DNA of 64,000 bases from Marsupella aquatica (lineage: Eukaryota > Plantae > Marchantiophyta). The notes under the pieces were generated by a model, which saw only the letters and a program-made list of their open reading frames with translations, made no database searches and had not been told where the DNA came from. Both the position numbers and the translations under genes were made by a program. Location of the stretch: the NCBI GenBank assembly GCA_973895155.1, contig OZ316894.1, positions 22,663,867-22,727,866 of the forward strand, given 5' to 3'. Every line of letters starts with the position of its first letter. Position 1 is the stretch's first letter. This document shows positions 20,180 to 64,000 of this stretch, piece after piece.

Positions 20180-20760
20180 CTTTGGGATCAGATCTCCCTG
20201 TTTTGTACTTTTTGTGTTGGGCAGTGTGATATATATAAAACTATGTTTTGCCAATATTTTCTCCCCTTTATTGGGTCTCTTCCCTTTCGGATCCTGGGCC
20301 CATTTGGCTTTTAGTGTGCTTTGGCAGTGTAGTGGATATAAAACTAATTTTTTCTCACATTTTTCCCGTTTGTTGGGTCTCTTGCCTTTTGGGATCCGAT
20401 GTCCCCATTACGCTTTTTATGTGCTGTGGCAATGTTATGTATATAAAACTAGATCTTCTCCGTATTTTCCCTCCTTTATTGGGTTTCTTGCCTTTGCTCT
20501 CCAGGTTTGATGCTTTTTGTTGTTGGGCAGTGTGATATACGTAAAACTAGGTTTTCCCCATATGGTCTCCCTTTATTGGGTCTCTTGCCTTGGAATCCCG
20601 TCTCCCCCTTTTGTGGCTTTCTATGCTTTGGCAGTGTGATATACTTAAAGCTAGTTTTTCCCATATTTTCTCCCCTTCATTGGGTTTCTTGCCTTTGGGA
20701 AAGAGTCTCTTGGTTCGGTGCTTTTTGTGCTTTGAGAGTGTGAATGATATATACAAGGTT
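20180..20760. repeat. Degenerate tandem array, ~103-bp unit x6 (core TTGGCAGTGTGATATATATAAAACTA...TTTTCTCCCCTTTATTGGGTCTCTTGCCTTT)
   Basis: The core recurs at about 20213, 20316, 20420, 20519, 20622 and 20726. A related copy lies at about 19700-19800 and inverted copies at about 24555-25010. Confidence 0.8.
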
Positions 20761-30860: not shown

Positions 30861-33302
30861 TCGATCCCTTTTTCTTCATATCAGATTGATTCTCTTCCAC
30901 TGTACACTACTAAATCACAGCTCAGGTTGTCATCCGTTTTGGGTCGTTGCTTAGAAACGACTAGAATAACCTGAGTTGCTTTCCTTTGGATGAAGACAGG
31001 GAGGAAACCCTCCCTACAGATTTCCCTGAACATAGCTTTTGTTAGCTGTGTCAATTTCTTCCATTGTTGAGAAGATCTGGGCCCCTTGTCGGGGTTACTT
31101 TCACAATATTGAGCCGTTTTAGTAGAAAAGGGGTTACTAGTCCGAACATGGAATTCTTTTTTTGTCGATTCGTCGATCAGCTGACGGTGGGTTCCTTTGG
31201 AGAACTTAGAAATCTGTTTCCTGTTAGGAAGATTCGAAAAAGCAAATATACCATTTGCAGCATGTATTTATCTTGGTGAAGAGTGATTTTGTCGCATCTC
31301 GTTGGTGACCCGATCTTGTTTGGCTACTGAACCTGGAATGGAGTCTCTTTTGGGTTTATTACTGATCAGAATATCCTTCCCAGTTGTATGGAGCCGTTTG
31401 GAATATTTAATCTTATGTCAGTTGCAGTAAGAAAAGAGGTTTGCACATCCATGACATATCTCCATCTCATTCTCCTGCAAGAGTGATGTAAAACCTGTAT
31501 CGTGGCAACTTCTGTGGTCCCGCCAACTGGATCCGCTTCAGCCCATCAAATGAACATCTATAGTGTCTTGCCAACTGTGGCAAAGGATACGCCGGAATGT
31601 CGCTGCAGTCAGACTTTTGATCTAAAGGTGCCACTGGTCTCAGTTGCTGATATATGAATACAGGTTTTGTAACACAATTTGGGGAGAAGACAAGTTGAAG
31701 TCGGAAGGAAATTCTCGCTAGAAGCTCAAAGTAGTTTGTGCCTGGAAATTCTCGCTCGTAGCTAGTTCCGGGAGGTTGTACCTTTCGGTAATGCTTATCG
31801 TTGAGCCATACGAAAGGGGTAACAGGGTAGGTAACACGGTAAAGTCGGCATTGGGTAGTAATTGCACTTGTAACTTGTATTCGATTGTGAAGATCGAGAG
31901 GACTACAAGATGTGGGGATGCTGCATCCATTTATCCTAGAATGTTTTGGCCCATGTGCTGGCGGGCTTGGAATTAGTCTGTGTGATCGTTAATGGATGTG
32001 CTACTGGTCGTGCTGCATTGTTTTGGCGGCTTTGAAGGTACAATTCTCACTTATTTCACTCCATGCGCTTCTTTTTGTATTGGTGATGGGGATTTCTTTA
32101 CATGCCTTTCGCAGTGATGGGGAGTTTCCTCACATGCTTCTTGGAATGACAGCCAGCTCTATGCACTGTATTATGAGTGCACAAGCGATCAACTGTGCAT
32201 TGCTCCTAAGTGCGACATCTACACTACACAATAAGTGCATGGGAAATACTTTGTGCACTTCCCCATATGTGTTGTCCTGATTCCCCATACCCCAAGCTCT
32301 CATGCTCACTGATTCAACTAGTGTTTCTGGGCATTGAGTGATATTGCCCATAAAAACAAGGGCTTTGACTTAACCCACCAATATCTATATAAAAGGAAAT
32401 GTGTCCAAGATTTCTCTCTTTTTCACATTCCTCCTCTAGAATGAGACTTTGTTACACAATTTCAGGAAAAATGTTCTGAAAATGTTCAAACCTGGTGAAT
32501 CCGGGTTTTGTCATGAACAGTCATGCTTTAAGTTTTGAGGGGGTGTTATTGCCCACATTTGGTATATACTAATGTTTCTGGGCATTGTGTGATATAATGT
32601 CCATAAAAGCAAGAGCTTTCGCTTAAGTTTTGAGGGGGTGTTATTTCTCATATTGTCTTGGAAACAGGAACTTAAAACACTTAAAGCCCTTAGGGATTAT
32701 TATTTTTACTAAGTTTAGTACAAGCACACAAGAGTCTTCCTGAAGAGGTGATCCAAATCTTGACTTGGGCATTCTTATGGAAGAATGCACTGAGAAATAC
32801 CAAGTGAAAAATCACTAAAGGCATTCAGTAATTGTAGGTGGCACTATTTTCTTATGTATGCATTGATCTATGCATGTGCACATTTAAAATACTGAAATAC
32901 ACAATTCTATTTGTAATGGAGTAAGGGTCTACCTGCACTTATGCAAACTACATTGTTGGGTGAATCTCAAATGAATTCTCTAAAATATTAGGTGACCAGA
33001 TAGCCTGTTTGCACTTTTCCACAGTTTACTATCTGCATGATTTTGTGTGGTACAACCTTTTGATACTGTAGTCCAATGAAGGAATGACTCATGTAAGGGA
33101 CCCTTCGTGACAGCGACTCCGCAGTGTGAAAGGATGGATTTGTGGAAAACAAAGTTCGTGTCACCACATGATTCGTAAGATTGACGCAAACGGTAATGCG
33201 TTTCAATTTTTAAAGAATTGGAAACCTCTGTTCCTGGGTCCTGCGCAGATTCTCTGCTACAGCACTTTTGGGGCTGCTGAAAGCTTTCATTTATAGTTTG
33301 GG

Positions 33303-33462
33303 CTTTGAAATGCATGTTCATGTATATCTTGAGTTCTGAAATGCATGTTCAAGTGCACCTATGCTTTTCATTTTTACTCCTGGTTTTGAAATGCATATTC
33401 AAGCGCACCTATGCTTTCATTCATACTTTGGCTTTTGAAATGCATGCTCCAGCGCACCTATA
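33303..33462. repeat. Degenerate short tandem repeat (TTTGAAATGCATGTTCAAGTGCACCTAT-like) x4
   Basis: The motif recurs at about 33304, 33335, 33385 and 33434. Confidence 0.65.
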
Positions 33463-34128
33463 CTTAGCAGACATGCTTGGGTTTCACCTCATAGTTTCTC
33501 TATAAGTTATTGTCCATGTCTATTGCAAGGAAGATCGAATTAAGGAGCCTTGGTTTTGAAGAAGTTTCGTGTCTAACGGGGAACGGGAGCCCGGTGTGTA
33601 TCAGCCCGGAATTTACATCATCCTGAACAGCCGGACAATCCATCCCCTCCGGACAATCCATCACCTCCTGCTCCCGCAAACCTCCTCCCTGCGTGCACGC
33701 GATCCCACTTTTCCAAAAAGCCTGATCTTCCTCAGGAACGCGTGGACTCACAAGACATTTGCCCGGCTAGACCTGAGTCGCCGTTACTGGTGCTATGATC
33801 GTTAACGCAAATCGCTAATGTTGCCCTTCCTACAGAATCCATGGCTTTCAAGTCGACTCGGTGAAATCCACGTCATAGAGGAATTTATAAAATCGCAATC
33901 CAAATTCTTCATCGAGGATTTACATTTCGTTCTGCTTTAACAACTTTTCCGGAAACACTTTCAATGGAGGTAGTGGGTACCAAACTCCACTCGGGTATTC
34001 TTGCATCGAACAAAAGAAGAGTAATCTTACGGAGGAAAGACTGGTTGTCTGCTCAAAATTCAAAAAAATAGATCCACCTGACGTGGTCATGATAATATAA
34101 GCACTTCTCGTACTCCCACAGTCCATAG

Positions 34129-34318
34129 CTGCCTCAAAATTTGAACATGCTGATAGTCGGTGCAAAATTGTTGGTCATGGTAACTGTAAGTATCTGCCTA
34201 TCTGCCTCAAAATTTGAACATGCTGACAGTCGGTGCAAATTGTTGGTCATGGTAACATTATCTGCCTCAAAATGTGAACATGCTGACAGTCGGTGCAAAT
34301 TGTCGGTCATGGTAACTG
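34129..34318. repeat. Tandem repeat, ~60-70-bp unit CTGCCTCAAAATTTGAACATGCTGACAGTCGGTGCAAATTGTTGGTCATGGTAAC x3
   Basis: Copies start at about 34129, 34202 and 34262. Confidence 0.85.
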
Positions 34319-34544: not shown

Positions 34545-35828
34545 TCAAAGTTGGATTCCACACTTCAAATCAGCATATTCCTGACTATTTTCTTCACAAT
34601 CTGTTTCATGCCAAACAATCTTTGAGTGCTCGCTTCCGAACCCTTTGCCTTCAAGGAGACATGATCCGGAGGAATGCTTGCTTTTCCAATCCACTCCTAG
34701 ATAAAGCGCATCATTTCCTCTTACAGGAGCAAGTGGCGTGAATTTCAGATATTGTTGACGTAGCATGGAAGGAAACGAATTTGAATGCAGATCTTTCCAA
34801 GACTTGCTGTCAACGTCTTGGACATAGATGCCGAGCTGAGTAATCAAATGAAGTTTACCCTCAGCTACGAACACAGTTTCTGAATCATGCTTCTGAAATC
34901 TCTCCACTTCTCTCCAGTCATCCTTGACTGGATGATATGCCTCCAGAAACATTGCATCATGCACCGAATTAGTAGGTATACGGTATCCATCTTCATTCAG
35001 AAAAGGCTTCGCTAGGTCTTCACCGTAGTCTAGGTCAAAAACCTCTCCACCATACACCAAAAGTACCTCTCTTAGTGTAGCAACATGATGACCACATCGC
35101 AAAACTTTCACGGGCCTTGTTGGAGACCAAGTATTGGCACAGGCCCATTGTGACTTGCACCCCCAAATACATAAATCTTCCCACCTATGACACCACACCC
35201 AAACTTCAGGCGTCCCTCTTGCATGCTTGCACATTGCTGCCATTCACAGCTCCAGCTGCGGTCCTGGCTAGGACGCCCCAGCTTTTCTTCCGGCCCCACC
35301 AGGTCCAGCACGTATACTTCATTGTATACTTCCTTGAATTCATCGTCATCCTCATTTCCACACGACTCACCATATCCGGTTCCTCCTCCCAAAACGTATA
35401 TTTTGCCATCCAATGAAACACATTGGCATTCCCATGGGATTCCCCTGTTACACCCTGGAATTTGAGGCAATTCATAGCAATGTTCTTCTCTCGGGCAATA
35501 AAGGAAAATTCCCTCACAACTGAAATCTATTATTTTCGAAAGGATGACTATGGACAAGAAGCGTATCAGTCGACCAAGAGCTAACTCTGGCATCGTAGAC
35601 ACGACGACTTTGAATTGCTTTTCGCCAGGTAGGACTTACTGATGACAGGATGCAAAATGCTTTCCACGGCAGCTTTGTACATATGTGGTCCAAGGTTATA
35701 ATGTTGGGGATCCCCGGAAGAAGTTGGTCACCCTGCCCCTCCGACTTTGAATGCTTCTCACTGGTCCCTGTGCTTTCAGTAACTGTATTGCTTGCCCTAC
35801 AGTCTCCCATCCCGTCGTTGCTCATCAT
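34545..35828 (-). pseudogene. Intronless F-box/kelch-repeat protein gene with two frameshifts
   Basis: The F-box (LLPGIPNIITLDHICTKLPW...LSSVSPTWRKAI) is in ORF 35514-35828. Kelch repeats (CVSLDGKIYVLGG; WQQCASMQEGRLKFGCGVIGGKIYVFGG) are in ORF 35108-35602. Further kelch motifs (EAYHPVKDDWREV, VAEGKLHLI) are in ORF 34545-35243. The frames change without plausible introns. Confidence 0.75.
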
Positions 35829-42010: not shown

Positions 42011-45000
42011 ATGGACGAGGATGCTGCTGCAGGGGGAGGTTTGGGATTCAGTAAGCATAGAAGAGGTAAAGAGCAAGAGCCCACACTGCATCTGTATGTG
42101 GCCAATTGTGGGCCGGCGGTGGGGCTCTCATACAGTGTCATCAAGGAAGCTTTCGAATCCTTCGGGGAGGTGACAGGGATCCAAGCGGCGGGCGATTCCG
42201 GAACTCGGGTGGTCATCTCTTTCGGAAAGGTGGAGGATGCCGCTGCGGTAAAGGAGGCTTGGAGTGGCCACCCTTGTGATCGTCTTCAAGGCCGAGTGAT
42301 GTACATGCAGTACTCTGTGCCACGGTCCTTACCCATGGTAAAGTCATCAGGCTCTACAATATGTTGCTAAAAGTGGGCAATGTGGTCATTTACATGTGCT
42401 GCATGCTTGTACTACCTTAGGGATTTGTGGTTCAGGTAATCTCATTGAAGTTTTGATTTAGAATCAAGGATGATTGAATTGCTAAGAAAGTGTTCACGTG
42501 CGGTGATTGTGATACGTTTCAATGAGCAGGTTGAGGACCAGGAGCTTGCCATGACCACAGCCGCACAGCTACAAATTCCAGGGCTCGCAATCTACCCAGA
42601 CTTTGTGTCCATTGACGAGGAACAGGTGCGTAGTCCTCGTAATTTTAAATTTATCCATCTATTATACATGAATAACTTAAACCCAATTTTGGAACTGGAT
42701 AAGCACACATTGGCTAGTATATGGTCAGGGTGAAGATGCGCTTCTATGTTCTCCTGAGAGTACCTTACCCAACACGAAGTTTAACAAGGTGCTTACAATA
42801 TAGCTCGTAGTCTTTGAAATGAGAAAGAAGCTAATAAAGCATTTATTTCTATTTTTACGTGGATTGCTAGTGAGGGTACATCGAAATCCAGTTTCAAGTT
42901 CTACTCTAGTCGACATTACTAGATCGATAACTATATTTAGATGGGCGACTATATTTAGTCGCCCTGACCTAAATATTGAAGAGTAGCTCAATATATTGAA
43001 TTTGGGAACGCTCTGAGTGCTAGAGAAGAATTTATTAGAATTTTTGTGGTGTCCTCGATTACGTGAATACTGTGCGAAACCTCAATTCATAATTCTGGAG
43101 GCATAAATATCCGTTCTGCCTCAGAATGGCTTTGCTGTTCCAGCTGTTTGTCTGTCTACCTGGTGTAGAAACAAAGATGTGCCTTGTGTTTATGCCTATT
43201 TGAATCTGACTACTGTTCATGTAATCTCTTCCAAAACTTAAGAACAAGCCACAGGTCACGTCCTAAAACGACAATCAGGATGCTTCATTTCTAGGTTAGG
43301 TGGGAATGCTACAGCAAGGAGATTCAATCCGCTAATGTGAGTGATTCTCCTGTAGATCAATTGTCCTAATGTTTGTGAGATCACCAGGAGCTGCTGGCAG
43401 CTGTAGATCTGTTGCCTTGGCAGAATCTTGCCAAAAGAAGAGTGCAGCATTACGGGTACGAGTTTTTGTACAAGGTTCAAATTCCCTCTTTTCACAGGGT
43501 GTGCTGGTTTTCATCAAATTTCTGGGTTTTCTTGGCGCTGGTTTGCTCCATTTAGTCGCTACAGATAAATTACTTTCTATTTCCATATTGCTTGGATGGT
43601 CCAGTAGCGAATCTGGAAATTTTGGCAAGATGATTTCGTTTCAGAAATATTTAGGAGATGGTATACTCAGTTAAGGTTTGTCCGTGCTGCAGTCAAGGAA
43701 TGTGGACCTCTCACAGAAATTGGGAAACTTGCCAACCTTTGTGGGGAAAGTAGTAGAAAACATTTGCTCACTTACTGAGCTGACTCAGGCAAATGAGTTA
43801 TCTGTACCTCTGGATCAGCTTACGGTATGTGCACATCATCTTCATTAGCTTTCAAAGCTCTGGATGCCACTTGTTTATCTTTAACATGTGCGGAAAGTTC
43901 CTTAGATTAAGCCTAGTCCCCTTAAGAATATATCTGGTGTTAATAGTTTTGCGGATTTATAGTCGTGATTTTAGTGTTGATGAATTTCTATCATGCGCAA
44001 GGAAACTACTGTAGTGCCTCTTTTTGTCTGAGTTTCCTAGAACCATTGCCATCAAGTGTCAGCCAATAATAAACACGAACGGTAATCAATGTCTGTTTGC
44101 AAGAGAATTTTCTTATGCAAACGTCTTTGTTCATTTGTGAGTTCGGAGCATAAGCATTTAGGTAAGGGTGATGAGCATTTTCCGCCAGCTGGTGTTCCTC
44201 GTATCTCAGAAGACCGAGAATGTTTAGTTCACTCATTGCTCATGCTAGCTTGTATGTGGGGGTCTCAAGCAGGTGAATGAGTATCCGAGGGGTGTTGGTT
44301 TGTCACCTCACATAGATACCCACTCTGCGTTTGAAGGCTCCATTATATCATTGTCACTTGCTGGACCATGTGTAATGGAGTTCAGAAGGTATCCGAGTTC
44401 TGATAGTCCTGGAGAAAGTTCCGGGTGTGAAGCTGCTGAAAGCTCTTCTGTAAGCAGTGCATTTGAAAAGTCACCAAATGGAACTTCCAAGAAAGTGATG
44501 GAACGGAAAAAGATTTTCTTACCTCAAAGGTCTCTTCTGATATTGTCCGATGAAGCCCGATATTCGTGGCATCACTACATCCCCCATCACAAGGTACCAC
44601 TCTTTAGGAAGTTAGCATTAAGAGAACATACAAGAGTAATCTTCGGTCTTGCTGTCACAAATTTGTCGTCTGTGTTGGACTTGAGTTGTGCCGGTGATTC
44701 ATGATTCACTGCATCTAGTGTTATCTGCCCAGAATTTGTGATGTCAACTTGTTTGATTAGTTCTGTAGTCTGTATCCGGCGACTGTCTCTAATACTCCCT
44801 TCCCTGATTATGACGAATTCTGCCTTCAGGTTGATCAGCTCATTAATGAGACTGTACCCAGAGGCTCTAGGAGAGTTTCATTCACCTTCCGTAAGGTAAC
44901 ACTTAATTGTTGGAGCGATTCTTTAAATAGCTGGAGTATTGAATTTTGCTACGTCTGTTCTGTCATTACTAATTTACCTATAACCCAACTATATCACTGA

Positions 45001-46573
45001 AGTGTTGTTGATTTTTCCTCAGGTGCGTTCTGGACCTTGCCAGTGCAGCTTTGTGAAAGATTGTGACTCCCAGAATTCAGTCCTGTCAGGTTCTCCATTT
45101 CTATCAAATGCAGAGAAGACAGAATGCTCAGACTTAGACAGCTTGGGTGCAGATACCATAGCAGGTCAGGCTCAGGGGGACGTGGGAACAAATTCAGCTG
45201 AACAGGAAAGCCATTCGGATGAGTGGCACCATGAACTTGAACGAGCTGGAACCAAAGTCATAGAGCAACTTGTCTCCTGCCATTTAGACGATTCAAATCC
45301 TTCGGAAAGTATCTTTGAGGATGCTGCCAAACCAATTTCGCTTTCAGCTCCGGACATAGAGAAACTATATGTGCACAAGGTTTATGATGCTATTGCTCCA
45401 CATTTCAGTGCCACAAGGTTTGCGAAGTGGCCAAAGGTTGCATTATTTCTGGATTCCCTGGCTCCTGGCTCCTTAGTTGCTGATTCTGGATGTGGCAACG
45501 GAAAATATCTTGGCTACAATCCAAACTGCGTCTTCATTGGTTGTGACATAAGTCCGCCCCTTGTGGCCATTTGTTCGAGAAAGGGTCACGAGGCTCTTGT
45601 CGCGGATGCTTTAAATCTACCTTATAGGACTGGATTTTATGATGCAGCAATTTCTATTGCGGTGTTGCATCATCTCAGTAACGAACACCGGAGGGTAAGG
45701 GCCATAGAGGAGCTTCTGAGAGTGGTTTGTTCTGGAGGCACGGTTTTAATTACCGTTTGGGCAAGGGAACAGGAGGATAAAAATCTAGCCAAGAAATGGA
45801 CTCCTCTGTCTGACAAGTATGTGGAGGAATGGGTCAAAGATGAAGACCTTACAAATGGCAGGAGGCAGGACCTCTCATTCTCCCTGGACAGAATTCAGGA
45901 AGGGGACGGATGTATAGATTGCAGTATGGGCGATAGACAAGGATCGGGGAATGGATTTGACACTGAGAAGGGAGTCCAAGGAGTAGGCTTAAGGAGTCCA
46001 GCTGACACAAGGAAGCAGCAAGGCTACGAACAAGGTCGGCGTTTGAGTCCTCTTGCATTTTCATGGTCTAGGTTCGCTCTCATTAATTCTCGAGCCCACC
46101 TGGCACATCTCCACGGTATACTTAAACTTTCAGGAGACAGACAGTGAACGTTTCGAGGTATTCTCTGGTAAGGTTTCTGATTATGTCAATGGTGGATGGC
46201 AGGAGACGAAACAGGAAAAGCCATCGAAGAGCAACAAGAGTACTTTGTTCCTTGGCATTTGCCATATCATCGAGCTGAGGCAAATGGTGCATCAGCCGCC
46301 GTAGCCACTGGATTGGCACGAAAAGATGAGAAGAAGGGAACGTTGGTCTATAATCGTTATTACCACATGTTTGCAGAAGGGGAGCTTGAGAGGTATGTGT
46401 CTCTTGTGGGATTCAGTGTGGTTCAGTAAACTGCGGCAAAAAGAATTAGTAGTCGCTCCCGTTGTTAACTTGCGCTTATTTCTCGCAGACTAGCAACAGG
46501 AGTTTCGGGAGCCGAGATCATAGACCGATTCTATGATAAATCCAACTGGTGTATCGTTCTGCAAAAACTTTGA
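42011..46573 (+). CDS. ALKBH8: tRNA wobble-uridine modifying enzyme ALKBH8 (RRM + 2OG-Fe(II) AlkB + Zn finger + Trm9-type SAM methyltransferase), ~771 aa, 9 exons: 42011-42337, 42530-42625, 43388-43474, 43693-43824, 44273-44593, 44830-44895, 45023-46034, 46203-46392, 46489-46573
   Basis: RRM LYVANCGPAVG. AlkB motifs KRRVQHYGYEF, DQLTVNEYPRGVGLSPHIDTHSAF, RYSWHHYI and RRVSFTFR. Zn finger CQCSFVKDCDSQ. Trm9 motifs EKLYVHKVYDAIAPHFSATR, DSGCGNGKY, ISIAVLHHLS, YNRYYHMF and YDKSNWCIVLQK. Phases are consistent; the CDS totals 2316 nt. Confidence 0.9.
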
Positions 46574-48049: not shown

Positions 48050-48420
48050 CTTTCACCTAGTCAACACCAACTAGCTACCATATCATCAGTGTCAACTTAC
48101 AGGTGATGGGATCCAGTGCTCCTGATTTTGGAAGACAAGAAAGTAAAGGCTCCTTGCCCTCATTTTCACCTGGTCAGCACCAAATGGCTTCCATAGCTCC
48201 AGTACAACAGTATATCATCAGTCTTCTTACAAGTGATGGGACCCAATGCTCCAAATCTTTAAAAAAAATGAAAAGAAAGGCTCCCTTGTTCCCAATTTCA
48301 CCTGGTGAGCACCAAATGGCTCCCATAGCTCCTATATATCAGTATATCATCAATCTAGTTACAAGTGATGGGATCCTATGCTCCATATTTTCCAAAACAA
48401 GTAAAGAAAGCTCCTTGTTA
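48050..48420. repeat. Degenerate tandem array, ~110-130-bp unit x3
   Basis: TTTCACCT.GT.A.CACCAA...TATCATCA.T...TTACA.GTGATGGGA.CC..TGCTCC recurs at about 48051, 48163 and 48296. Confidence 0.75.
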
Positions 48421-50981: not shown

Positions 50982-53900
50982 ATGGCCAACCTGGAGAAAT
51001 TGACTTTCCCAGCTTTAGAAATCGATGATAACAATTACCTCGAGTGGTCCATGAACCTAAAGGAGAACCTGACCTCCTTAACCCTACTCCTCACTATAGG
51101 GATCGCTCAACCCATACTAGCTGGCGAACCTCAACCAGACCCGTTAACCAAAGCCAATGAATCCAAGGCCCTAGTATTTCTTAGACGCCATATCCATAGG
51201 TTCTTGCAAAGACAATACATGCATCTCTCAACCCCTCGCAAACTATGGACAGCGCTTCAGACCCAATTCGACCACCAAAAATTGGTCGAACTATCTAGAG
51301 CCAGGCAAGAATGGCTAAACCTACGGGTCCAGGATTTTACATCCATTTTAACCTAAAATAGTGAGCTATTCAAAATCACTTCAACCCTTACACTCTGTGG
51401 CGAGCCAGTCGCCGACAAGGACTTGCTAGAAAAGACCTTGTCCACGTTTCACTCTTCGAACGTGTTACTATCAACTCAGTACCGGAACATGAAGTTTGGG
51501 CAATACTCAGAGCTCATCGCCCACCTCCTAGTAACAGAAAGAAACCAAGAGCTTCTTTTAGTTAACTCTAGAAAATGCCCTACAGGTACACTAACCCCAG
51601 GACCACAGAGTGAAACCCATAATATAGAAAACGTTGAACCCTCCACATCAAGGCAGGGTATTAAGCGCATCAGGAATGACAACCAGAGAAACACCCCCTG
51701 TTAATGCCAATACCAATGCCCACAACTTAATTTCCAACTGCCCCTTAGAGGACGCGGCGAACGCGGAGGACGCGGCGGTGGAAGAACATATAACCACAAC
51801 CGAATAAATGATTGGTCACAATCCCGACAACAATGGGAACGCCCAAAATACCACAAATACGGCATGACAAACCACCTAGCAAGAAACTGTAGAATCCCGC
51901 AACACCTTTTGAGACCTATATCAACAGTCCCTCAAGGATGGACAAACCTCTAGGGCACCACCCCGTGAGACCCACGGGGCGTTTATGGAGTCCAGCGACC
52001 TATTTCAAGACTTTTCAGATACACCTGTGTAACCCGAGGCATATTTAGTGGCGGGCAGATCCACAACCCCAGACTTAAATAGCCCTAGCACATGCATTAT
52101 AGATAGTACGACTACGCATACTATCCTCCGGGATAGACTCCTTTTCTACAAGATAACACCCTCACGTAGATCACTGACCACTATCAATGGTCCTAGCCAA
52201 ATAGAAGAGGGCTTCGGCCCAGCTTCTATTAGACTCCCGTAGGGTACATAAATCTACATAGAATCTGCTAGCTTTGCCCCGAATGCAACCCGTAATCTCC
52301 TCAGTTTTAGAGATATACGAGCAAATGGACTCCACGTCCAGACAGGTGATACAAGAGACCAGGAAGTACTCCACTTGGTTGAAAATACCCCTACGGGGAA
52401 AATCATTAAAGAAACTCTTTTCTCGTACCCATGCGGGTTTTACATAACTCAAATTGAATGTTTGCATAACAATGCACAATCAAGTGAATTGCCCACGCTC
52501 TAGCATGCACGCCTCGGCCACCCCGGTCAATCCATGCTAAGCAAAATTATTAAGAATTCACGAGGCATTCCAACCAATATATGCCACATTCCAGCTAGCA
52601 CTCCATGCATTGCATGCTCACGCGACAAACTAATAACAAGGCCCACGACATCAAAATTGCCAACCAAGATACCAAAATTCTTGGACATCATACATGCGGA
52701 TGTTTGCGGGCCAATTAACCCACCGAGCGGACCATTCCGCTACTTTATGGTACTGATCGACACATCAACCAAATGGTCAAATGTGACCCTGCTTTCAACG
52801 AGGAACATGGTTATGCCTCGCATCTTGGCGCAAATCTTGCGCATGAAGGCACAATTTCCCGATCACCCCATTAAGACACTAAGGGTGGACAATGCAGGGG
52901 AATTCATATCTAAAACATTTGACGACTTCTGTACATCACTAGGTATCAATGTACAATATCCTATACCCCACGTGCATTTTCAAAATGGATTAGCTGAAGC
53001 TGTCATTAAACGCCTTCAGCTAATTGCAGGCCCACTACTAATGCAGTCGAAACTCCCCGTCTCAACATGGGGACATGCCATATTACAGGCTAACTCATTA
53101 ATTCAATACCACCCATCAGCTTTCAATACTTATAGTCCATACCAAATTGCTAACGGTATCAAACCCGATCTATCCCATCTTTGTTCATTTGGATGTCAAG
53201 TAATGGTCCCCATTACTCCACCCAAACGAACCAAGATGGGACCCCAACGACAGTTGGGGATATATATCGGATTCGACTCACCGTCCGTCATCAGATATAT
53301 GGAGCCTACAACGGGCGATGTTTTTAAAGCCAGATTTTTAGATTGTCATTTTGATGAACATGTTTATCCACCATCAATAACCCCTGAACACCCACAACCA
53401 CCTTTGGAGTGGGAGAGACATTTGCCATTTTGGCAAGACCTTAGAACCAATCAGGGGGAGAAAGAAGTTCAGCGAATTTTTCAACTCCACAAGATTGTGG
53501 AAGAACTTCCCGACGCTTTTGTCGATACATCACAAGTTACCCGCTCACATATTCCAGCTGCGAGAGCATCCGTTCGTATTGAATTATCAAGTGAACCAGC
53601 AAGTACACCCCAACCTTGTGCCAAACGTGGCAGACCCTTGGGATCAAAAGATAAACAACCCAGAAGGCGTGGTTCATCTATCCCTTCTTCACCTGATGTC
53701 GATCATACTGACTCTACAACTCATGAAGAGATCTCTATCCACTACGCACACACAGGTGCTATGTGGGATAGAAATACTACTTCAATAGACGATACTTTTG
53801 CATTAATGGTGGCAACCCATATCAATGATGATACACCTGAACCACTCTCCATCTTAGAATGCCAAAACAGATCAGATTGGCCTGAATGGCAAAAAGCTAT

Positions 53901-54366
53901 CAACGGAGAATTAGATTCCCTACTAAGCAGACACACTTTTGGCCCAGTTGAGCCAACATCGCAAGATGTACACCTCATTGGCTACAAGTGGACCTTCGTC
54001 CGCAAAAGAAATGATAAAGGCCAGGTTGTACGCTACAAAACACGTATGGTAGGGAAAGGATTTACCTAACAACAGGGAATTCATTACGATGAAACTTACT
54101 CACCGGTTATGGATAGCACAACATTCCGATACCTTATCGGATTTGCCATTTTCCATAAACTTCAGATGCAACAACTGGATGTTGCGACCGCATACCTATA
54201 TGGAACTTTAGACACTTGTCTATACATGCGATCACCTCCCGAGTTGGAGCAACATCGCCGAGCTTTAGCTCAAGGCGCTACATTGCATATTCCATATTTA
54301 CATAAGATTATAAAACCAATTACCTCAAATTACATCTCATGTGTCATCTACACATGTAACTCATAA
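50982..54366 (+). pseudogene. Copia gag-pol polyprotein, disrupted
   Basis: ORF fragments 50982-51356, 51423-51704, 52048-52242, 52534-54069 and 54109-54366 are separated by stops and frameshifts. Confidence 0.85.
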
Positions 54367-54370
54367 CAAT

Positions 54371-54699
54371 TGTCACACCATTCTGAGTAGTGTAGTAGTA
54401 TATCGTGCTATTAGAGTATGTAGTTTGGTATGAGTGCTATTGGAGCCGATAAGGTTCTGTCAGGTTTGTGTGAGAGGGTACTTCTCACTTGTGAGGCATT
54501 GAAAGGTCATCTTTCAATGTTGAGCCTTGGAGAGAGAGGAGCTTGAGTGTGGCTATGGTGGCTGTGAGCTCCGCTTGTGTAACGTGGATTCCTTGAGTAG
54601 TGCAAGGTGCGTTGGCTTGACATACGTGTGTGATCGGATCGGTGCGGGATCGATGGGGTATTGTTGACCGAGATCGTTGTGCCGATTGTATGGAGATTA
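54371..54699 (+). repeat. Terminal repeat B, copy 1 (329 bp); copy 2 at 63498-63826
   Basis: Same length and near-identical; I found one mismatch (CTTGTGTAAC vs CTTGTATAAC). Confidence 0.95.
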
Positions 54700-54710
54700 C
54701 ATTGAAAGAT
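54700..54710 (+). promoter_or_regulatory. Putative self-priming primer-binding site CATTGAAAGAT
   Basis: Lies immediately after repeat B and is the exact reverse complement of ATCTTTCAATG at 54509-54519 inside B. There is no TGG tRNA-type PBS. Confidence 0.65.
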
Positions 54711-54970
54711 CACATTCGAAATCTGTTGTACGGACTGTGCGGACAGAAGTTCGATTGATTGAGTTGTCGACGGTTCGTGGTAGCTCGGATCGTGTGTTGT
54801 TATCGAACAGATCGTTGGTATCTTGACCTGTATCGTTGTTGTCCGATCGGCCTGCTTCCCGATCGATGTACAGATCTGTGATTGGTGATAGGTTTTGAGT
54901 TGGAGGTCGATTGATGATTCGTGGAGGAAAGCGAATGTTGAGTAGATGTTGGACAGTGGAAGTCGATCCG

Positions 54971-55060
54971 TGAGGCTTCAGATCCGATTGCCGGCTACTG
55001 TGAGGCTTCAGATCTGATTATCGGCTACTATGGGGCTTCAGATCTGATTGCCGGCTATTG
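54971..55060. repeat. 30-bp tandem repeat x3 in the gypsy leader
   Basis: TGAGGCTTCAGATCCGATTGCCGGCTACTG-like units at 54971, 55001 and 55031. Confidence 0.85.
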
Positions 55061-55287
55061 TTGGACGATGTTGGCAAGGCGCAGGTGAAGCGACGGCTCT
55101 TTTCCTGAAGGAACGGAGCTGCCAATGCCCCGTGCGACGGTATCATCATTTCAGTGAAAGAAACGAGGGTCAAAGGTGTTGAATCAAGCTGCTGCCAGTT
55201 CTGTGGAAGGGCTGCGTTTTTCATGAAGGAAATCGACAGTTTTCGGGAGCTTTTCGTGAAGGAAGTAGTCATTTTTGGGGTCAGGTG

Positions 55288-55512
55288 CACGAGGTCACCC
55301 ATCCCGAAAGTGCTCGCGCGAGGCGACGCGTGAGGTCACCCATCCCGAAAGTGCTCCCAACCGCGAGCGCGAAGTCACCCATCGCGAGCGCAGGCAGGCG
55401 CGAGGTCGAGGTCACCCATCCCGGGGCTATTCCGGGCCGTGAGCGCGAGGGGAGGCACAAGGTCGAGCGCGAGGAGGTCACCCATCCCGGGGCTATTCCC
55501 AGCCGCGAGCGC
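55288..55512. repeat. CpG-rich repeat cluster (GAGGTCACCCATCCCG x5) in the gypsy leader
   Basis: The motif recurs at about 55291, 55332, 55371, 55408 and 55474. Confidence 0.8.
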
Positions 55513-58500
55513 TTAACTGGAAAGTTCTCATCCCACCTTGTGTACACACAAGCTTTGACAACTTGTTGTTTAGATTCAAGTGCCAGGGGGCTTTATACAC
55601 TTCCCAATTTATTTAGAGGCCTATTCTAGGCCAAATCAGATGCTGTTTTAGGGTTTTTGATACTTCTGAGTCCATCTAGACTCACAGATTGAACCAATTT
55701 TGCCTTGGTTCTCATCTACAACATTGGAGTGCCATTGTGAAGCCTATTATGAAGGCTCTTCCTTGAACCTTATGCACATTGTCATATTGATTTGCATTTG
55801 CTTTTGTGTGGAGAGTTGAATGGTATCCATTCTTGTTTCTGGATCCTCTTCACACATGTTTCCTGTTTATGCGCCATGTTAGTTTCATGTGGGCGCTTGA
55901 TTCCATAGGAGTGATCCGGGTTTGCAACTAGACATTCTAGTGTGCTGTGTATTTCTCTCTTGGTGATGTTGGAGTGATGCCCAACACACCATGGTGAGTG
56001 CTTGTGGTGCTGACAGGGATAGATTGCCCTTAGGGTTAGCACATAGATTAGGTTAGGGTTGGTCACCATGGATTCTTCTGGTGCTGCTGGATTACCCGAT
56101 GGACGACGGACCGGTTTCACTCGGAGTGGGGCACAGTTTCGGCCAGCGGCATTGGTAGCAGTTAGCAGTGCAGCTTCAGACAGTGATTCTGATGAGGACT
56201 CAATGACCAGTTCTCCTCATCATCAGGTGGTTGCACCTTTGTTGTGGGATATGGACGAGATGTACGGGGCTACAAAGGGCCCACAATGATACTCTGGTGC
56301 AGTTGGCACAATTGATCTGGATGACTTCATCCAGGAGTTTGATACGTGGTGCGATATGCAGACATTGCGTAACGTCACGTTGTTTACCCCTTTCATGGCA
56401 TGGAAGGGATTATTCCAGCATTTGGAGGGGCCACCCATGGATGACTACCATGAGTTTCGGAAGGCTCATTTGGTTGAGATTGAGGCATGGAGGCAACATT
56501 GGTCGCCTAATTATGTGTCCATCACCTATGGCACTAGTGCGGCTGCCCAACCCATTGCCACAGCTGCTGCTTCTTCTAGCAGCACTAGCCAAAGTGGCAC
56601 ACCATCCACCAGCAGCACTCCAGCAGCATCCACCACTACTCTTACCGGTGTGATTGTGACAGGAACTGGAGTTGCGCCAGCATTTAATCCTGTGGTGGAA
56701 TTCTTTGAGGTACTGAAGCAGAACTATCAGGGTGTGAGAACTGATAAGTTGAAGGGTCTTCAAGAGTTCCAACGCAAGACTGGAGAGAGCCTACGTGAGG
56801 CATACACACGTATGCGCAGATTGATCACTGTCACCAAGGGAGTGACAGAGGCTCAGGCAGTCCAGTTTTGGTATGCAATTCTGGACAGAGAATTGCGACG
56901 CAGAGTGAGAGATGTCACTCTGCTTAGGGATGCAGATCCCACATTAGCAATTGTTTTCACCCTTTCTGAGCGCATTGAGCTCAATATGGTGAATGAGAAG
57001 GTGGTGACTTCCGGATTTGCCAAGGAAGCACCAAAGGCTGCATCTACATCCACACCACAGCCTACTGCACGGAAGAGCCAGAGGGAGAAGCCTACTGCAC
57101 GAGAGTCTACCAGCCAGAGACCTGTGCCCTCATATGCTGGACAGCAGTCAGGATGTTGGACCTGTGGTGGGGATCATGCACAGAGATATTGTCCAGATCA
57201 TAGAGGATCAGGGGGAGTATCAGCGCCTGATCAGCGACAGTGTGATCATTGTGGAGCTCCTGGACACACCAAGGATAGGTGTTTTTCACTCCACCCTGAG
57301 TTACGGAGAGGAGGATCCCGTACACATGATCAGGGAAGAGGAGGTAGAGGTGGTGGACGTGGTCGTGGCATGCCACATGCAGGGAGACAGGGAGGTGACG
57401 CTGCCCCTGCTATAACCATAGATCCAAAAGATGCTAAGATTGCTCAATTGGAGCAACAACTAGCTGCCATGGCTAGTTCCCAGGTGAGACCTAATTCTGG
57501 TGATGGGGCATCTACATCCTATGGACCTTCCACATCCCATGGTCCTTCCACATCTTATGGAGCTGATGGAGACCTTGCCACCATGGGATTCATGTGTGGC
57601 ACTGCACATATTGATGCATCAGCAACTTTGACACGTGGGGCAGCCAAAGCTCTTGAGCCCCGAGGAGCAGTAGTGGAGTTAGATCCACAAAGGGGGGATG
57701 CACGTCGGCAGACAAAGCTTCCTCAGTCTTTTACATTGTCAAAGACAGTTCAGACTGCCTCTATGAACCCGGTTCGGACAAACCCTGATGTGGGTAAGTT
57801 GGCAGAATCAGGTAGTGATGCAGCAGGGATGACATGTACCTTGCTGGGGGCGGCTACTGCCATAGTACGCACCCCATTATTTTCAGCGATAGACATGCTG
57901 AACTTGGGAGTTGGTCCTGCAGAAGTGTTCAGATTGGCAGCTACACTCTGTGAGGACACTCCAGTGGTTGCTTCCCATGCAGAAGCAACTTGTAGTGTTG
58001 ATGCAGTGAAGACCATGCCACCTACTGTTACTAGTGAGACATGGCATGCAGCAGCAGCGAGGTTGGTGGATTTACCAGCACGCCCTGCATTTGAGAGGAC
58101 TAGGTTTAAACCTAGTGTTGTGTCATTGGATAATCGGAGTGGTATCTTCCGATTAGTTGGGCCTTCTGGAGCAGTATACTAGCCAGAGAGAGTGTTACTG
58201 GATACTGGTGCTCAGCCCTTGATGTTGGGGAAGTCTGCCATACGTGGATTGGGATTGCATCCAGAGGATTTGGAGGATTGTCCCTTTCCCATTCAGACTT
58301 CATTGGGGGGACCTACACCTACACAGCATATCACCAGGAGACCACTTGATTTGAGGATTCAGGAAGGTCATACCACAGATAGCTCACAGATACAGGCGCG
58401 AGCTATTCTGACTAAGGCAGAGTCATATGATGTGTTGGTGAGATGTACAGTGCTCTACCCCATGGGATTTATTCTTGATTTTTGGGAGGAATCAGTGTCA

Positions 58501-58908
58501 TATAGACCTGATTGGCAGTCAGGAGATGCTCGATTGAGAAAATTGCCAGTGAGATTTAGTGGACCTGCGGGAGGCCCTAAATCCACACCATTGTCTTTGG
58601 CAGCATTCAGTGGTGTAATTGCTAGACTTGATGATTTGATTGAGGGTAATGCGCATGCAGCCGATGTTCCACCATTGGAGGAGTCTCATGAGGAGCACAT
58701 CATGCGAGGATTACCTGTTGGCAGTGTTGTGCCACCAGTGTGGGGCATTGCACAGGCCTTGCCACAGGCAGCAGCACGATTGGTACATGATGCATGGCGT
58801 CATGCTTTTACACCACAGTCAGGAGCAGAGCAGTCTCTTGCAGATGGACCTGTGACTCTTTCACCATTGGATACCACTCCTATTGCTTGGCAGTATCCAC
58901 CGGAGGGT

Positions 58909-59866
58909 ATTTGTTTGTTGGATCTTTTTGGTGGGATTAGCACTGGATTGGCTGCTGTTCTTCAGGCAGGAAATTATGTGCGTCGTTATTTGTATGTGGA
59001 GACAGATGAGACAACACGGAGGGTCTCATTGCAACATGTGGCTATGTTGGTGGATAGATATCCACAGTTGCTGCCAGTGGATGCTGTTCATGGTTATCAG
59101 CATGCACTACCTGCTGATATTTCATTGCTGGGGGCGGATCATCTGCATCGTGTTGGCCCCATTGATTTGGTGATTGCTGGTTGGCCATGTCAGGGCCAAT
59201 CTAGAGCTGGCGTTGGGCATGGACTTCATGATCCACGCTCTGCATTGTTTTGGGAGATGTTACGGGTTTAGGGTTTAGGGTTTAGGGTTTAGGGTCCAGC
59301 TACATCAGACATAGTCTCCAGCATACATTTTGGAGAATGTGCCATTGTTAGGTGATGATCGTAGTCGGATTGTTGCTAGTGTTCACCAAGTGAGGTCTTG
59401 GATTGGACCTGCTGTGTTATTGGATGCTGCACGTGTGGGTTCTCGTGCACATCGTCCACGCTTGTGGTGGACTAATTTGATCCCATGTGAGGTGCTGAAG
59501 CGCGCATTTGACAGCATTCCACGCTCACCAGCCTTAGTGGTGGATGATATTTTGGATCCAGGGCGTCGTGCACTGGGTGTGACCCAACCTGATAGACCTC
59601 CATTGGCAATGGTCAATGCAGTTGGGTGCCCACGTTGTGCATTACCCACTCTTGTAAGCCACTCTGCTTCATATGCATTCAGAGCAGGTGGCCCTGGACT
59701 TGTATGGGACACAGCTCTCCAGCAGTTAGTGGAGCCTACTGCTGATGAGAGAGAGCGTGCTATGGGATTTTTGACTGGCACCACTGCAGTTGCCTCTATG
59801 TCAGAGGGTTTGCGGCGCCAGGTTCTTGGTCAAGCAATGGATTTGAATTGTTTGACTTGGATTATC
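58909..59866 (+). other. DNA (cytosine-5)-methyltransferase domain embedded in the gypsy polyprotein
   Basis: C5-MTase motifs in canonical order: I LDLFGGISTG, II YVETD, III ADIS, IV AGWPCQG (catalytic PC), VI ENV, VIII AHRPRLWW, IX ERERAMGF, X RQVLGQAM. Confidence 0.9.
59264..59295 (+). repeat. Interstitial telomeric repeat (GGGTTTA)4.5
   Basis: Four perfect Arabidopsis-type units plus GGGT inside the MTase coding region. Confidence 0.95.
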
Positions 59867-62800
59867 AGCTTGGGAGTAGCTGGACAGTTGCGGATGCGCT
59901 CTGCCGGAATTACTGATTGTCCCTTGGTGAGCTTGCGGTCCACTGAGACAGTATTGACCACAGCTGGGGGCGAGCAGACAATCCATGGACCTATGACAGG
60001 ATTGGCGGCTGGACAGATTGTTGAGCAGGAAGGGACTGCTCAATCTACTGCTAAATAGCAATCATCGGCTATCTCTTCTACCCTACAAAGAGATATTAGG
60101 GATTTGGTGGAGAGTTGGGAACCACAGCTTGGCCCTAAGTTAACAGGGGAGGAGAGACGTCGCATGCATCGATTCGTGAAGAGTTATTGGAATTGTTTTG
60201 CATTCAGCATGAAGGATTTGGGGACATTGAAGGGCCCTGGTATTCAGATTGAATTGGCTAGTGATGCGCCAATCTTTCGTAGGCCATACCGTTATAGTGA
60301 CATGGAGAGAGCTCTGATTCAAAGCAGAACTCAAGATTTGTTGGAGGCTGGATTGGTGGAGATTTCATATGGGGAGTATGCATCTGCCACAGTGATGCCA
60401 GCCAAGAAGGATGTGCATGGCAATTATACAGATAGGCGCATGTGTGGTGATTACAGACCTATTAATCGCCAGACAAAATCTGATCGATATGCCATGCCCA
60501 CACCTGAGGAGATCTTTGATGTTGTGGGGCATGCAAAGGTTTTCAGTTCATTGGATCTGAGGGCAGGATACCATCAGCTTCCAATTAGGCATGCTGACAG
60601 GTCCAAGACAGCATTCTGGGGGATTGATTCTTATGGCAAAGATCGTTTGTATCAATGGTTATTCTTACCATTTGGGTTGAAGAATGCACCAGCTGAGTTC
60701 CAGAGAGTCATGGATCGAATCCTTGCAGGTTTGGATTTTGTCAGATGTTATATTGATGATATTTTGGTCTATTCTTCTATTGTGGAAGAACATCAGCAGC
60801 ACTTGCAGACTGTGTTGGAGAGATTGAGAGCACATGGGTTGAAGCTCCATCCTAGCAAGTGTAAGTTCTTCCAAGACCAGATTGAGTATTTGGGCCACAC
60901 CATATACCCAGGGGGATTGGGTGTACAGCAGACTAAAGTGGAGGCCATTACACAGATTCCTTGTCCTACTGATGTGAGTAGAGTTCGTGCATTCTTGGGA
61001 TTGGCGAGCTACTACAGGAGGTATGTTAAAGGATTTAGCCAACTTGCTAAACCTTTGACCATACTCACTAAGTTGGATCAGGAATGGATTTGGGGTAATG
61101 ACCAGGAGCATGCCTTTAAGGAGTTGAAGCAAAGGTTGGCATCATCCCCTATTTTGAGAAGACCCATTTCAGGCAGACCATTTCAGCTACACACTGATTG
61201 GAGTGGAGTAGGACTTGGAGCAGTGCTGACTCAGAAGGATGATGAGGGGAATGAGTTTGTTGTGGCTTATGCCAGTAGATCAAACAATTCAGCAGAGGCT
61301 AAGTATAGCTCTTATGAGGGAGAGTGTTTGGCAGTAGTGTGGGCTGTTGCACACTTTCGTTGCTACTTGTTTGGTAACCCCTTCACCTTGATCACTGATC
61401 ATCAGCCTCTTAAGTGGTTAATGGAGTCTGACAAGCTTACAGGGAAGCTTGCACGATGGGCATTGTTGTTACAGGAGTATGATTTCCAGGTGGTGCATAG
61501 GCCTGGAAAAGTGAACTTGGATGCAGATGGATTAAGCCGCAATCCATGTACCAGTCAGCAGGATGAGATTGGAGCCAGATGGCATGATGAGTCAGATAGG
61601 GAGATGGTGCCAAGATGGCATGCATCTGCCTTTCTTTGTTGGGTGTCAGCATACAGTGGATCTGTGGACTCTACCTCATTGGATGGAGTGGATGATGAGT
61701 CTTCAGATGTGGATGTTGGTGAAGTAACTTCTGGACAACAAGATATTCACAATGATGTGAGAGTGTTGGAATATTTGCGCAATAGTTCTATTGTTGGCAG
61801 TGTTGATGCCAAGGAACGTGACAGGGTTCTACAGAGAGCCAAGAGGTTTTGATGGGAGGGAAACCATCTTTTGAGAGTACTGCATGATGGTAGGATGTTG
61901 GTGGTACCAAAACCATCACAACGAGTACATTTGGTGCGACATGCGCACGAGGAGTTGGGTCACTTTGGTGTGAAGCGCACTTACAACTTGCTGCAGACAC
62001 AGTATTGGTGGCGTGGTATGCACACTCATGTCCAGCAGTTGATAGCTAAGTGTGTGGTATGTGACAGAGTGAGAGAATTATTTAATGCTCCCACTCCCCA
62101 GTTGCACCCGTTACCGATCATGGGTTTGGGATATCGTTGGAGTTTGGATTTTGCTGGTCCATTACCTCTTACCCAACGTCATAATCGGTATGTTTTGGTC
62201 ATGGTGGAGCACTTCTCTAAGTGGATTGAGCTAGTGGCGTTGCCAGATAAAGCCAGTGGAGGAGTTGCTGCTACATTTTTGGATCGTGTACTCAGTCATT
62301 TTGGAGCACCAGCTGAGGTGTTGACTGATCAAGGAACTGAGTTCCGTGGAGAGTTTGAGAGTTTGTGTGAACAAGCTCTGATTGATCATCGCACTACCTC
62401 TCGTGATCATCCTGAGGCAGATGGATTAGCTAAGAGAGTTATGCAAACTGTGAAGAGAGGATTGCGTAAGTATGGCTTGCAGGTTGGTCATCTAGGAGAT
62501 TGGGATCTCCAGCTACCTTGGTTAGCTATGGGCTACTGTTTCAGTCGGCAAGCATCACTTGCATCCTTCTCACCCTACTTTTTGCTCTATGGTAGAGAGC
62601 CAGATTTGCCAGCAGCTATTCGTCGTCATGCTGCACCAGTTGTGAACTTGGATGATCCTGATGTTTGGGTCAAGGTGTGTTCAGAGAGAGCACGGGTATT
62701 TCAGAGAGTGATGCCCATGGCTTTTGACAACCTTGCCATTGCCCAACATCGTGATACTTTGAGGTATGCCACTATTCGTGGAGGAGGTTACCGTGCAAGC

Positions 62801-63043
62801 ATTCGACGATTTCATCCTGGTGATTATGTTTATTTGCAGCAGACAGCACCCACGACACTTGATGTGACCGCAGGCCGAACAATCTTACGTGTGCATGAAG
62901 TGTTGCCTTCTGGTGTCCTGATGTTGGAGGGACGCGATGGTATGGTTTGGAAGGATCATGTGCGTAACTGTGCACCATGTCACCTTCCCAACATTGATGG
63001 TACAGTAGATCCAAGCTTGGCACATGTTTGTGCTGGCTTGAAA

Positions 63044-63181
63044 TGTATGTTGTATGGATCTGCTCAGGGAGCAGCTACTATGTTGATTTGTGATAAGTGT
63101 TCTAGAGGATGGCACATGTCATGTTTGACACCACCATTGCAGGTGATTCCTAGTGGATCATGGTTGTGTCCTCAGTGTCGG
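63044..63181 (+). other. PHD finger at the integrase C-terminus
   Basis: C-ML-(Y)...LICDKCSRGWHMSCLTPPLQVIPSGSWLCPQC is a C4HC3 pattern whose second Cys has become Tyr (TAT). Confidence 0.85.
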
Positions 63182-63348
63182 TGAAGCCGACTAGTTATCA
63201 TTTGTGTTCTCTTGGCAGATATGGATTGCAGGTAGGTGATCGATGGGGCTCACTTGCACCCGGCCTCCTGATCTTCACACCTAAAAAGGTGTATATCAAC
63301 CTTGTAGAACTCATGGCTAGCTAGAGTTAGGGGACCTTACTCCCAGCT

Positions 63349-63358
63349 AGGGGGGCGA
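63349..63358 (+). promoter_or_regulatory. Polypurine tract AGGGGGGCGA
   Basis: G-run immediately upstream of repeat A copy 1. Confidence 0.7.
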
Positions 63359-63495
63359 TTGTGGGTTTTGGACATGTGTGAACATGAGTTCCACTTGTAT
63401 TCCATTCTCTTGTATTTGTGATGTGGCAGTGTGACTATGTCTGGATGTATGTGACAAGCGATGTATGTTGTGTAGCGATATGTATGCGCACGACA
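63359..63495 (+). repeat. Terminal repeat A, copy 1 (137 bp); copy 2 at 63827-63963
   Basis: Same length; I found two mismatches. Copy 1 joins B copy 2 through GC, forming the palindrome GACAGCTGTC. Confidence 0.95.
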
Positions 63496-64000
63496 GCTGT
63501 CACACCATTCTGAGTAGTGTAGTAGTATATCGTGCTATTAGAGTATGTAGTTTGGTATGAGTGCTATTGGAGCCGATAAGGTTCTGTCAGGTTTGTGTGA
63601 GAGGGTACTTCTCACTTGTGAGGCATTGAAAGGTCATCTTTCAATGTTGAGCCTTGGAGAGAGAGGAGCTTGAGTGTGGCTATGGTGGCTGTGAGCTCCG
63701 CTTGTATAACGTGGATTCCTTGAGTAGTGCAAGGTGCGTTGGCTTGACATACGTGTGTGATCGGATCGGTGCGGGATCGATGGGGTATTGTTGACCGAGA
63801 TCGTTGTGCCGATTGTATGGAGATTATTGTGGGTTTTGGACATGTGTGGACATGAGTTCCACTTGTATTCCATTCTCTTGTATTTGTGATGTGGCAGTGT
63901 GACTATGTCTGGATGTATGTGACAAGCGATGTATGTTGTGTAGCGATATGTATGCACACGACACAATGACACCCCTGTGTCAGCCGTACGGAATACTCTC

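Follow-up and report, generated by a model that had tools for sequence, protein, structure and literature searches.

Organization of the element

Here we describe a retrotransposon with Ty3/Gypsy-type proteins and split direct repeats, found in a 64,000-nucleotide (nt) stretch of the liverwort Marsupella aquatica genome (assembly GCA_973895155.1, contig OZ316894.1, positions 22,663,867 to 22,727,866 of the forward strand), hereafter the window. The element spans 54371-63963, is bracketed by CAAT at 54367-54370 and 63964-63967, and lies downstream of a decayed Ty1/copia integrase-reverse transcriptase (RT) frame at 52504-54069. Its repeats follow the order B-internal-A-GC-B-A, with outer termini TGTC on the left and GACA on the right. 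The B copies, termed B5 and B3 (54371-54699 and 63498-63826), differ at 1 of 329 sites, and the A copies, A1 and A2 (63359-63495 and 63827-63963), at 2 of 137. No further copies of A or B were found elsewhere in the 64-kb window. A GC dinucleotide at 63496-63497 separates A1 from B3 and forms the center of the palindrome GACAGCTGTC at 63492-63501. The insertion ends of the element are the two halves of this palindrome minus the central GC. The individual features are listed in Table 1.

Table 1 Features of the Marsupella element, in window coordinates
Feature	Position	Strand	Remarks
Left target-site duplication CAAT	54367..54370	+	Relatives support 4 base pairs (bp)
B5, left terminal repeat, 3' part of the reverse-transcription unit	54371..54698	+	Begins with the left integrase half-site TGTC
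Hairpin in B, 11-bp stem and 5-nt loop	54495..54521	+	3' arm is the predicted self-primer; B3 counterpart at 63622-63648
Predicted self-primer ATCTTTCAATGT, putative 5' end of the transcript	54509..54520	+	Exact 12-nt complement of the sequence after B5
Primer-binding site ACATTGAAAGAT	54699..54710	+	Complement of mid-B; no TGG start of the transfer RNA (tRNA) type
gag-like frame with CCHC-like motifs	56290..58182	+	Weak Retrotrans_gag match, E 0.051; conserved in relatives
Aspartic protease-like region and N-terminal part of DNMT3-like C5 cytosine methyltransferase	58183..59271	+	PF00145 E 1.3e-6; PF13650 E 0.006
C-terminal methyltransferase part, in a different frame in the window copy	59315..60058	+	Adjoins the N-terminal part in relatives; no Pfam match of its own
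RT and RNase H, Ty3/Gypsy type	60059..61852	+	Top solved relatives Ty3 4OL8 and 7Q5B, E 2e-76
Integrase: H2C2 zinc finger, rve core, C-terminal PHD finger	61853..63184	+	Third catalytic position substituted in the window copy
Polypurine tract (G run) immediately 5' of A1	63349..63357	+	
A1, 5' part of the unique 3' region (U3)	63358..63495	+	Terminates in CACGACA
Palindrome GACAGCTGTC, putative integrase site within the repeat	63492..63501	.	Central GC missing from the insertion ends
B3, second B copy	63498..63825	+	
A2, second A copy	63826..63963	+	Abuts the B3 end; source of the right half-site GACA
Right target-site duplication CAAT	63964..63967	+	

One A nucleotide is common to both boundary readings at 54699, 63358 and 63826, so the unit is best read as ATTGTGGG...GGAGATT, with GGAGATT/ATTGTGGG at the join. 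The first-pass annotation of the window had described the repeat order, the ends and the CAAT duplication, had defined A-GC-B as the unit bounded by the polypurine tract (PPT) and primer site, and had taken the palindrome halves without GC as the true ends. The repeat coordinates, the sequence around the PPT and primer site, and the window together with its relatives agree with these descriptions in turn. The B3 end does meet the A2 start where that annotation placed the join, at 63826/63827, and the shared A refines the position to that given here.

The window alone permits a 5-bp duplication (ACAAT) besides the 4-bp one. The longer reading fits the window and one relative (L037) only, and the relatives fix the length at 4 bp: among the eight elements with both ends, window counted, a 4-bp duplication fits exactly in five and a 5-bp one in two. 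Reading TGTGGG...GATTACA as ordinary TG...CA unit ends was also rejected, as this pair is not conserved among relatives. On the left, the element interrupts a decayed Ty1/copia region (52504-54280) whose RT stops just before the insertion site. The right flank carries a small inverted repeat at 63968-63981 (GACAC-CCCT-GTGTC) that resembles the GACA...TGTC site and may be there by chance.

Proteins and phylogenetic placement

Protease, RT, RNase H and integrase follow one another in the Ty3/Gypsy order with a Gypsy-type RT, and the integrase is of the DDE type with a zinc finger, as in Ty3/Gypsy elements. A chromodomain is absent after the integrase, where a PHD finger is present instead. Pfam matches bear out the DDE-type integrase named by the first-pass annotation, and no tyrosine recombinase match was found in the 21 frames of at least 100 amino acids (aa) inside the element. 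Two identical long terminal repeats (LTRs) with integrase sites outermost, as expected of a Gypsy element, are not present here: 0 of 9 left ends carry A, and the insertion ends lie inside the unit. Membership in Ty3/Gypsy rests on the proteins, not on the ends.

The closest solved structures to the methyltransferase are of DNMT3A, with a weak match (E 3e-4), and homologues of this domain occur in Marchantia and Calypogeia. In the window copy, three in-frame stops (58180-58182, 60056-60058, 61850-61852) interrupt the coding sequence, and the reading frame shifts between 59271 and 59315. The third catalytic position of its integrase, acidic in 19 of 21 aligned relatives, is substituted. Judging by these three stops, one frameshift and one catalytic substitution, the window copy is inactive. 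The CpG observed/expected ratio is 0.26-0.36 across the coding region (56001-62000), compared to 0.89 at 54001-56000, a pattern that fits prolonged loss through methylation in the family.

Named relatives come from Calypogeia, Marchantia, Riccia, Sphagnum, Klebsormidium, Closterium, Tetraselmis, Haematococcus and Pleodorina. An RT tree (FastTree, midpoint root) was built from 124 rows, comprising 119 of 121 rows including the window (two were dropped for short alignments) and five loci. The window element adjoins Marchantia (82% identity) inside a 100-row clade with SH-like support of 99. This clade contains all 28 PF00145-marked rows plus a PHD-bearing protein of Klebsormidium nitens.

Recurrence of the layout in relatives

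Relatives were collected from an integrase alignment and comprise 80 metagenome loci (the best 80 of 499) and four genome-bin loci; these 84 loci and the window gave 85 sequences for a census of right ends. An A-B-A right end (long form) is present in 21 of the 85, at 14 distinct right flanks including the window and 13 others, and spans at least four sequence families. An A-only right end (short form) is present in 25, at 22 distinct flanks. The remaining sequences have A-B followed by other sequence (6), a deleted B-A (2), a contig end in or just after A (2) or no match to the A references (8), or are too short (21). No right flank is common to the long and short classes. All three complete long forms have exact 4-bp duplications (CAAT in the window, AAGG in L004 and CATA in L062), and five short B-internal-A forms have both ends, two with an exact 4-bp duplication, one with a single mismatch and two with none. 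All nine left ends start at B. TGTC begins seven of them, and one-base variants are found in L029 and the minus-strand element of L038. Neither A nor A-B lies upstream of B at any of the nine, one of which has only 48 nt of flank.

The A-GC-B-A layout is the family-wide normal form, not a one-off. This is what the first-pass annotation had proposed when it called the layout a possible normal route, to be abandoned if other copies had ordinary A+B repeats at both ends; the layout instead recurs at the 13 further flanks, with no ordinary left repeat at any of the nine left ends. That annotation had also asked whether independent copies all start alike, end in CACGACA and carry a 4-bp duplication. 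TGTC begins 7 of 9 left ends, CACGACA closes 29 of 48 right ends, and 4 bp fits exactly in 5 of 8 elements.

Tip lengths do not mark short forms as older than long ones, although the test has low power: medians are 0.059 and 0.046 (p 0.25), from 6 and 12 copies, one of them chimeric. Two apparent solo B-A units were rejected, one upstream in L023 for want of a duplication, the other in L034 as the 3' end of an element. No relatives were found in the viral contig collection, and from the genome bin behind L081 only the two contigs already known were recovered. Among individual loci, one copy in L061 (1805-1929) terminates within the B repeat of another family copy in opposite orientation, as a nested insertion or autointegration, and L038 (3213-14630) holds two convergent clade elements within ~11 kb. 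In L081 (1-9285), a contig with a terminal repeat of 127 bp, A-GC-B occurs once, with the primer site after it; a multicopy element collapsed in assembly is a likelier source than a 1-LTR circle. The retrotransposon contigs L081-L084 were placed in bins labelled cyanobacterium, mollicute and Halorubrum, which are likely contaminated.

The internal palindrome

Exact GACAGCTGTC occurs 13 times in 765,603 nt, against ~0.7 expected by chance in all (simple arithmetic, uniform composition), and every occurrence is 240-1150 nt 3' of the integrase. In all 14 representatives, chosen for showing the motif, the G run precedes the palindrome by 56-176 bp. In L044, L052, L083 and L084, whose integrases are 46-52% identical, it is widened to a perfect 16-20 bp palindrome with arms that differ yet co-vary. 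Of 27 A/B junctions, 8 are exact in register and 3 were misregistered by the script, and the rest mostly show C-to-T or G-to-A changes. The last seven bases of the right end at 48 loci are CACGACA (29), CATGACA (12), CACAACA (4) or other (3). The B sequences of the main families are mutually unalignable, and A aligns weakly or near its end.

Primer site and reverse-transcription unit

The PPT and primer site enclose the unit A-GC-B, which places the palindrome inside U3. B5 would then represent distal U3 with the promoter, followed by R and U5; that it carries the promoter is probable. A tRNA-type primer site was rejected, as TGG does not follow B at any of the 8 listed B/primer junctions (no tRNA set was screened). 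Instead, priming is predicted to be Tf1-like self-priming by the 5' end of the RNA. The 12-nt self-primer match in the window was reached by 0 of 200 shuffles, and at 6 of 9 left ends the match is better than at least 99 of 100 shuffles. Exact primer/site pairs of 13-16 nt are also present in L081, L011, L044 and L052 (no shuffle control). Across families, primer and site change together with complementarity kept, for example between L081 and L011. The hairpin that includes the primer has a fold energy of -14.5 kcal/mol, computed on the B3 copy, and pairing of primer and site has a probability of 0.57-0.83 for the first 8 pairs and <0.1 for the last 4. A TATA-like box is present ~31 nt upstream in two families, L004 and L071.

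The B-A join and fold-back copies

Since self-priming leaves A2 uncopied from RNA, the B-A join would have to be made anew. We listed 15 distinct joins, of which the majority are precise, including 5 of 7 in the L004 family. The two irregular joins of the L004 family are those of L017, with one extra base, and L002, where two PPT bases accompany an insertion of 17 nt that is in part a copy of neighboring B sequence. Outside that family, L071 has two extra bases that equal the primer-site start, as judged from L075. These irregular joins look like end-joining scars. Fold-back copies are represented by L027 (3360-3880) and L028, one insertion in two assemblies, in which A-GC-B and the primer site are followed by the first 180 bp of B in inverted orientation, up to GACA, and then by host flank. 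The copy ends at the half-site of the inverted B, so internal sites appear to be used as ends. This arrangement suggests that the primer complementarity is used and that an internal site is cut.

Proposed mechanism and alternatives

We consider it highly probable that the integrase cuts internally and that the B-A join is freshly made. In the proposed cycle, transcription would run from mid-B5 into B3, and the first 12-14 bases of the RNA would pair with the site after B5 and prime the minus strand as in Tf1, as the co-varying complementarity suggests. Standard reverse transcription from PPT to primer site should produce A-GC-B repeats that lack an integrase site at their ends, and the linear copy would thus be (A-GC-B)-internal-(A-GC-B). 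The B end would be joined to the A start in each cycle, and the integrase would nick GACA-GC-TGTC 3' of CA on each strand, so that the 5' overhangs are 2 bases long, as at processed retroviral ends. The observed product starts with TGTC, ends with GACA, lacks GC and has a 4-bp duplication. Replication would be limited to B-internal-A-GC-B-A, the one form whose transcript keeps B at either end, and B-internal-A would be a dead end. For the order of events, we favor joining of the complementary DNA (cDNA) ends first, most likely in a circle, followed by integrase cutting inside the repeat, with a probability of roughly 0.55. Ligation into a free 2-LTR circle before integration, as put forward by the first-pass annotation, is hypothetical, and cutting first fits the data about as well.

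Several observations weigh against joining first. A circle bears two identical palindromes and should therefore also yield B-A-B-internal-A. None of the 9 left ends shows this mirror product (P ~0.012 under equal frequency with the long form), an absence that a free circle does not explain without later loss; mirror forms could have been removed by B-B recombination or assembly collapse. A-only right ends are commoner than A-B-A ends (22 vs 14 distinct flanks). Possible sources of the short forms are assembly error and A-A recombination after insertion, as well as two-site cuts and 1-LTR circles. Contigs from short reads can mislead, as L020 illustrates, a chimera that the assembly joined through A. 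The self-priming control fails at 3 of 9 left ends, where 14, 16 and 13 of 100 shuffles did as well, and outside this control the L083 pair is only 12 nt and L084 has no match. No TATA-like box lies at the expected place in the window B. The widened palindromes of L044, L052, L083 and L084 come without visible insertion ends, and the irregular joins could be later mutations in old copies.

Some of these points are accounted for if cutting comes first, an order we regard as possible but rather unlikely. Here the integrase would cut the palindrome of the 5' repeat, double-stranded first, in the linear copy, and would hold and insert both pieces. The free B end and A start would form a chromosomal break that host end-joining turns into B-internal-A-GC-B-A and A/A annealing into B-internal-A, with no free circle. 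This order accounts for the missing mirror product, the abundant short forms with their 22 flanks and occasional 4-bp duplications, the similar ages of short and long copies, and the join scars, and L027/L028 suggest internal cutting on a non-circular copy. Against it, two-piece integration is required, for which we know of no precedent, most joins are precise, as fits ligation of fresh blunt ends, and the age test depends on few copies. It is quite improbable that templating of the PAT/Ngaro kind operates, with a transcript from B5 into A2, RT rebuilding the terminal junction from internal A-GC-B, the B-A join inherited, a circle formed via template jumps and a DDE integrase in place of the recombinase. 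The repeat order is the same as in A1-B1-A2-B2 elements (PMC4157794), internal A-GC-B is exactly the element end plus GC plus the element start, and the identity of 5 of 7 L004-family joins agrees with inheritance. However, a primer site right after B5 and a PPT right before A1 imply standard strand transfers that leave A2 uncopied, and the variable joins contain PPT or primer-site bases. Least probable by far, and refuted as the source of the layout itself, is that an ordinary LTR element was rearranged once, integrated into itself or was misassembled. The window locus is known from the assembly alone and its relative L020 is chimeric, but at least four families share the layout, at the 13 other flanks, and the 4-bp duplications adjoin the same ends, ordinary left repeats are lacking at all nine left ends, and the layout is also stated for Klebsormidium.

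Comparison with known systems

The family shares with canonical Ty3/Gypsy elements (Metaviridae) the gag-protease-RT-RNase H-integrase organization, a Ty3-like RT, the DDE-type integrase, the PPT, TG...CA insertion ends and the 4-bp duplication. Unlike these, its insertion ends are not the unit ends, its termini differ (B and A), and its integrase site is 56-176 bp inside U3. The chromoviruses Tf1 and Tcn1 have ordinary LTRs, and the window element differs from them in its PHD finger and split repeats; the RT tree has no Tf1 or Tcn1 rows. In Tf1-type self-priming, the first 11 RNA bases pair with the primer site (PMC7175516), and self-priming is predicted also for Tcn1 and TAR (PMC6317226). 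Like Tf1/Sushi and Tcn1 as described in these papers, the family has a primer site complementary to a stretch inside the repeat that is the predicted RNA 5' end, with 12-14 nt here compared to 11 in Tf1.

In reviews, split direct repeats are taken to mark elements with a tyrosine recombinase (PMC4157794, PMC8557442). The likeness to PAT, TOC and Ngaro pointed out by the first-pass annotation holds for the repeat order: PAT, TOC, Kangaroo, Ngaro and VIPER have A1-B1-A2-B2 repeats in which the internal junction copies the joined ends (PMC4157794). In contrast to these, no tyrosine recombinase was found in the window element, which has a DDE-type integrase, PPT and primer site, with 4-bp duplications at unrelated targets in the family. 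Foamy-virus integrase cleaves the palindromic circle junction with a 2-base 5' overhang (PMC1180852), and 2-LTR circles of HIV-1 can be reopened to linear form and then integrate (PMC4372172). The staggered palindrome cut after CA, with loss of two central bases, would be shared with foamy virus. As far as these two reports describe, however, the viral palindrome is the LTR-LTR join and reopening it restores the linear form, whereas here it is encoded inside the repeat and the join is not the cut site.

The annotation had known of no DDE-integrase LTR family with such a layout. This is contradicted by KnitGypsy-Dnmt3 of Klebsormidium nitens (de Mendoza et al. 2018), for which the Fig. 4c legend gives DIRS-type repeats with Gypsy domains (PMC5890265). 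With this layout in print, a split-repeat Gypsy element is not wholly unknown. Compared by published description rather than sequence, both elements have Gypsy domains, a DNMT3-like domain in Pol and the order A-coding-B-A-B. KnitGypsy-Dnmt3 is presented there as a K. nitens acquisition, whereas the relatives here span liverworts, Sphagnum and algae. The passages of PMC5890265 consulted and a word search of its three text supplements gave no palindrome, target duplication, primer site or mechanism for it. We found the family name only in that paper and in a one-line mention in a 2026 preprint (bioRxiv 10.64898/2026.05.21.726589), and no description of an internal site, duplication or priming in a literature search with Repbase and most subscription papers outside its scope. 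We give an even chance to a broader account in which a whole green-lineage PHD/DNMT3 Gypsy clade relocated the integrase site to U3, away from the cDNA ends, so that end-joining became obligatory, transposition proceeds via a circle, and the PAT/Ngaro layout arose by convergence.

Other features of the window

Two long frames at 9583-12570 (995 aa) and 12740-14827 (695 aa) have no Pfam match, and the first has weak look-alikes among plant proteins (scores 0.78-0.82). Plant genes are found at 27078-30860 (DUF936/DUF6857 protein), 35108-35635 (Kelch-repeat frame) and 44984-46147 (class I methyltransferase). Degenerate tandem arrays are located at 19674-20751 (~104 bp unit), 33285-33463 (~50), 34126-34316 (60-73) and 48092-48410 (~132).

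Significance

Joining of cDNA ends, the step that gives 2-LTR circles, is usually treated as a dead end for retroelements; in this family it looks obligatory. Retrovirology has long asked if 2-LTR circles lead nowhere or serve as integration precursors, and the family offers a direct test of this question: its integrase should cut the encoded internal palindrome, which is testable. The family also points to a route by which elements that lack a tyrosine recombinase can acquire split direct repeats. Search tools that depend on paired LTRs are likely to miss such elements, or call them in part, in liverworts, mosses and green algae.

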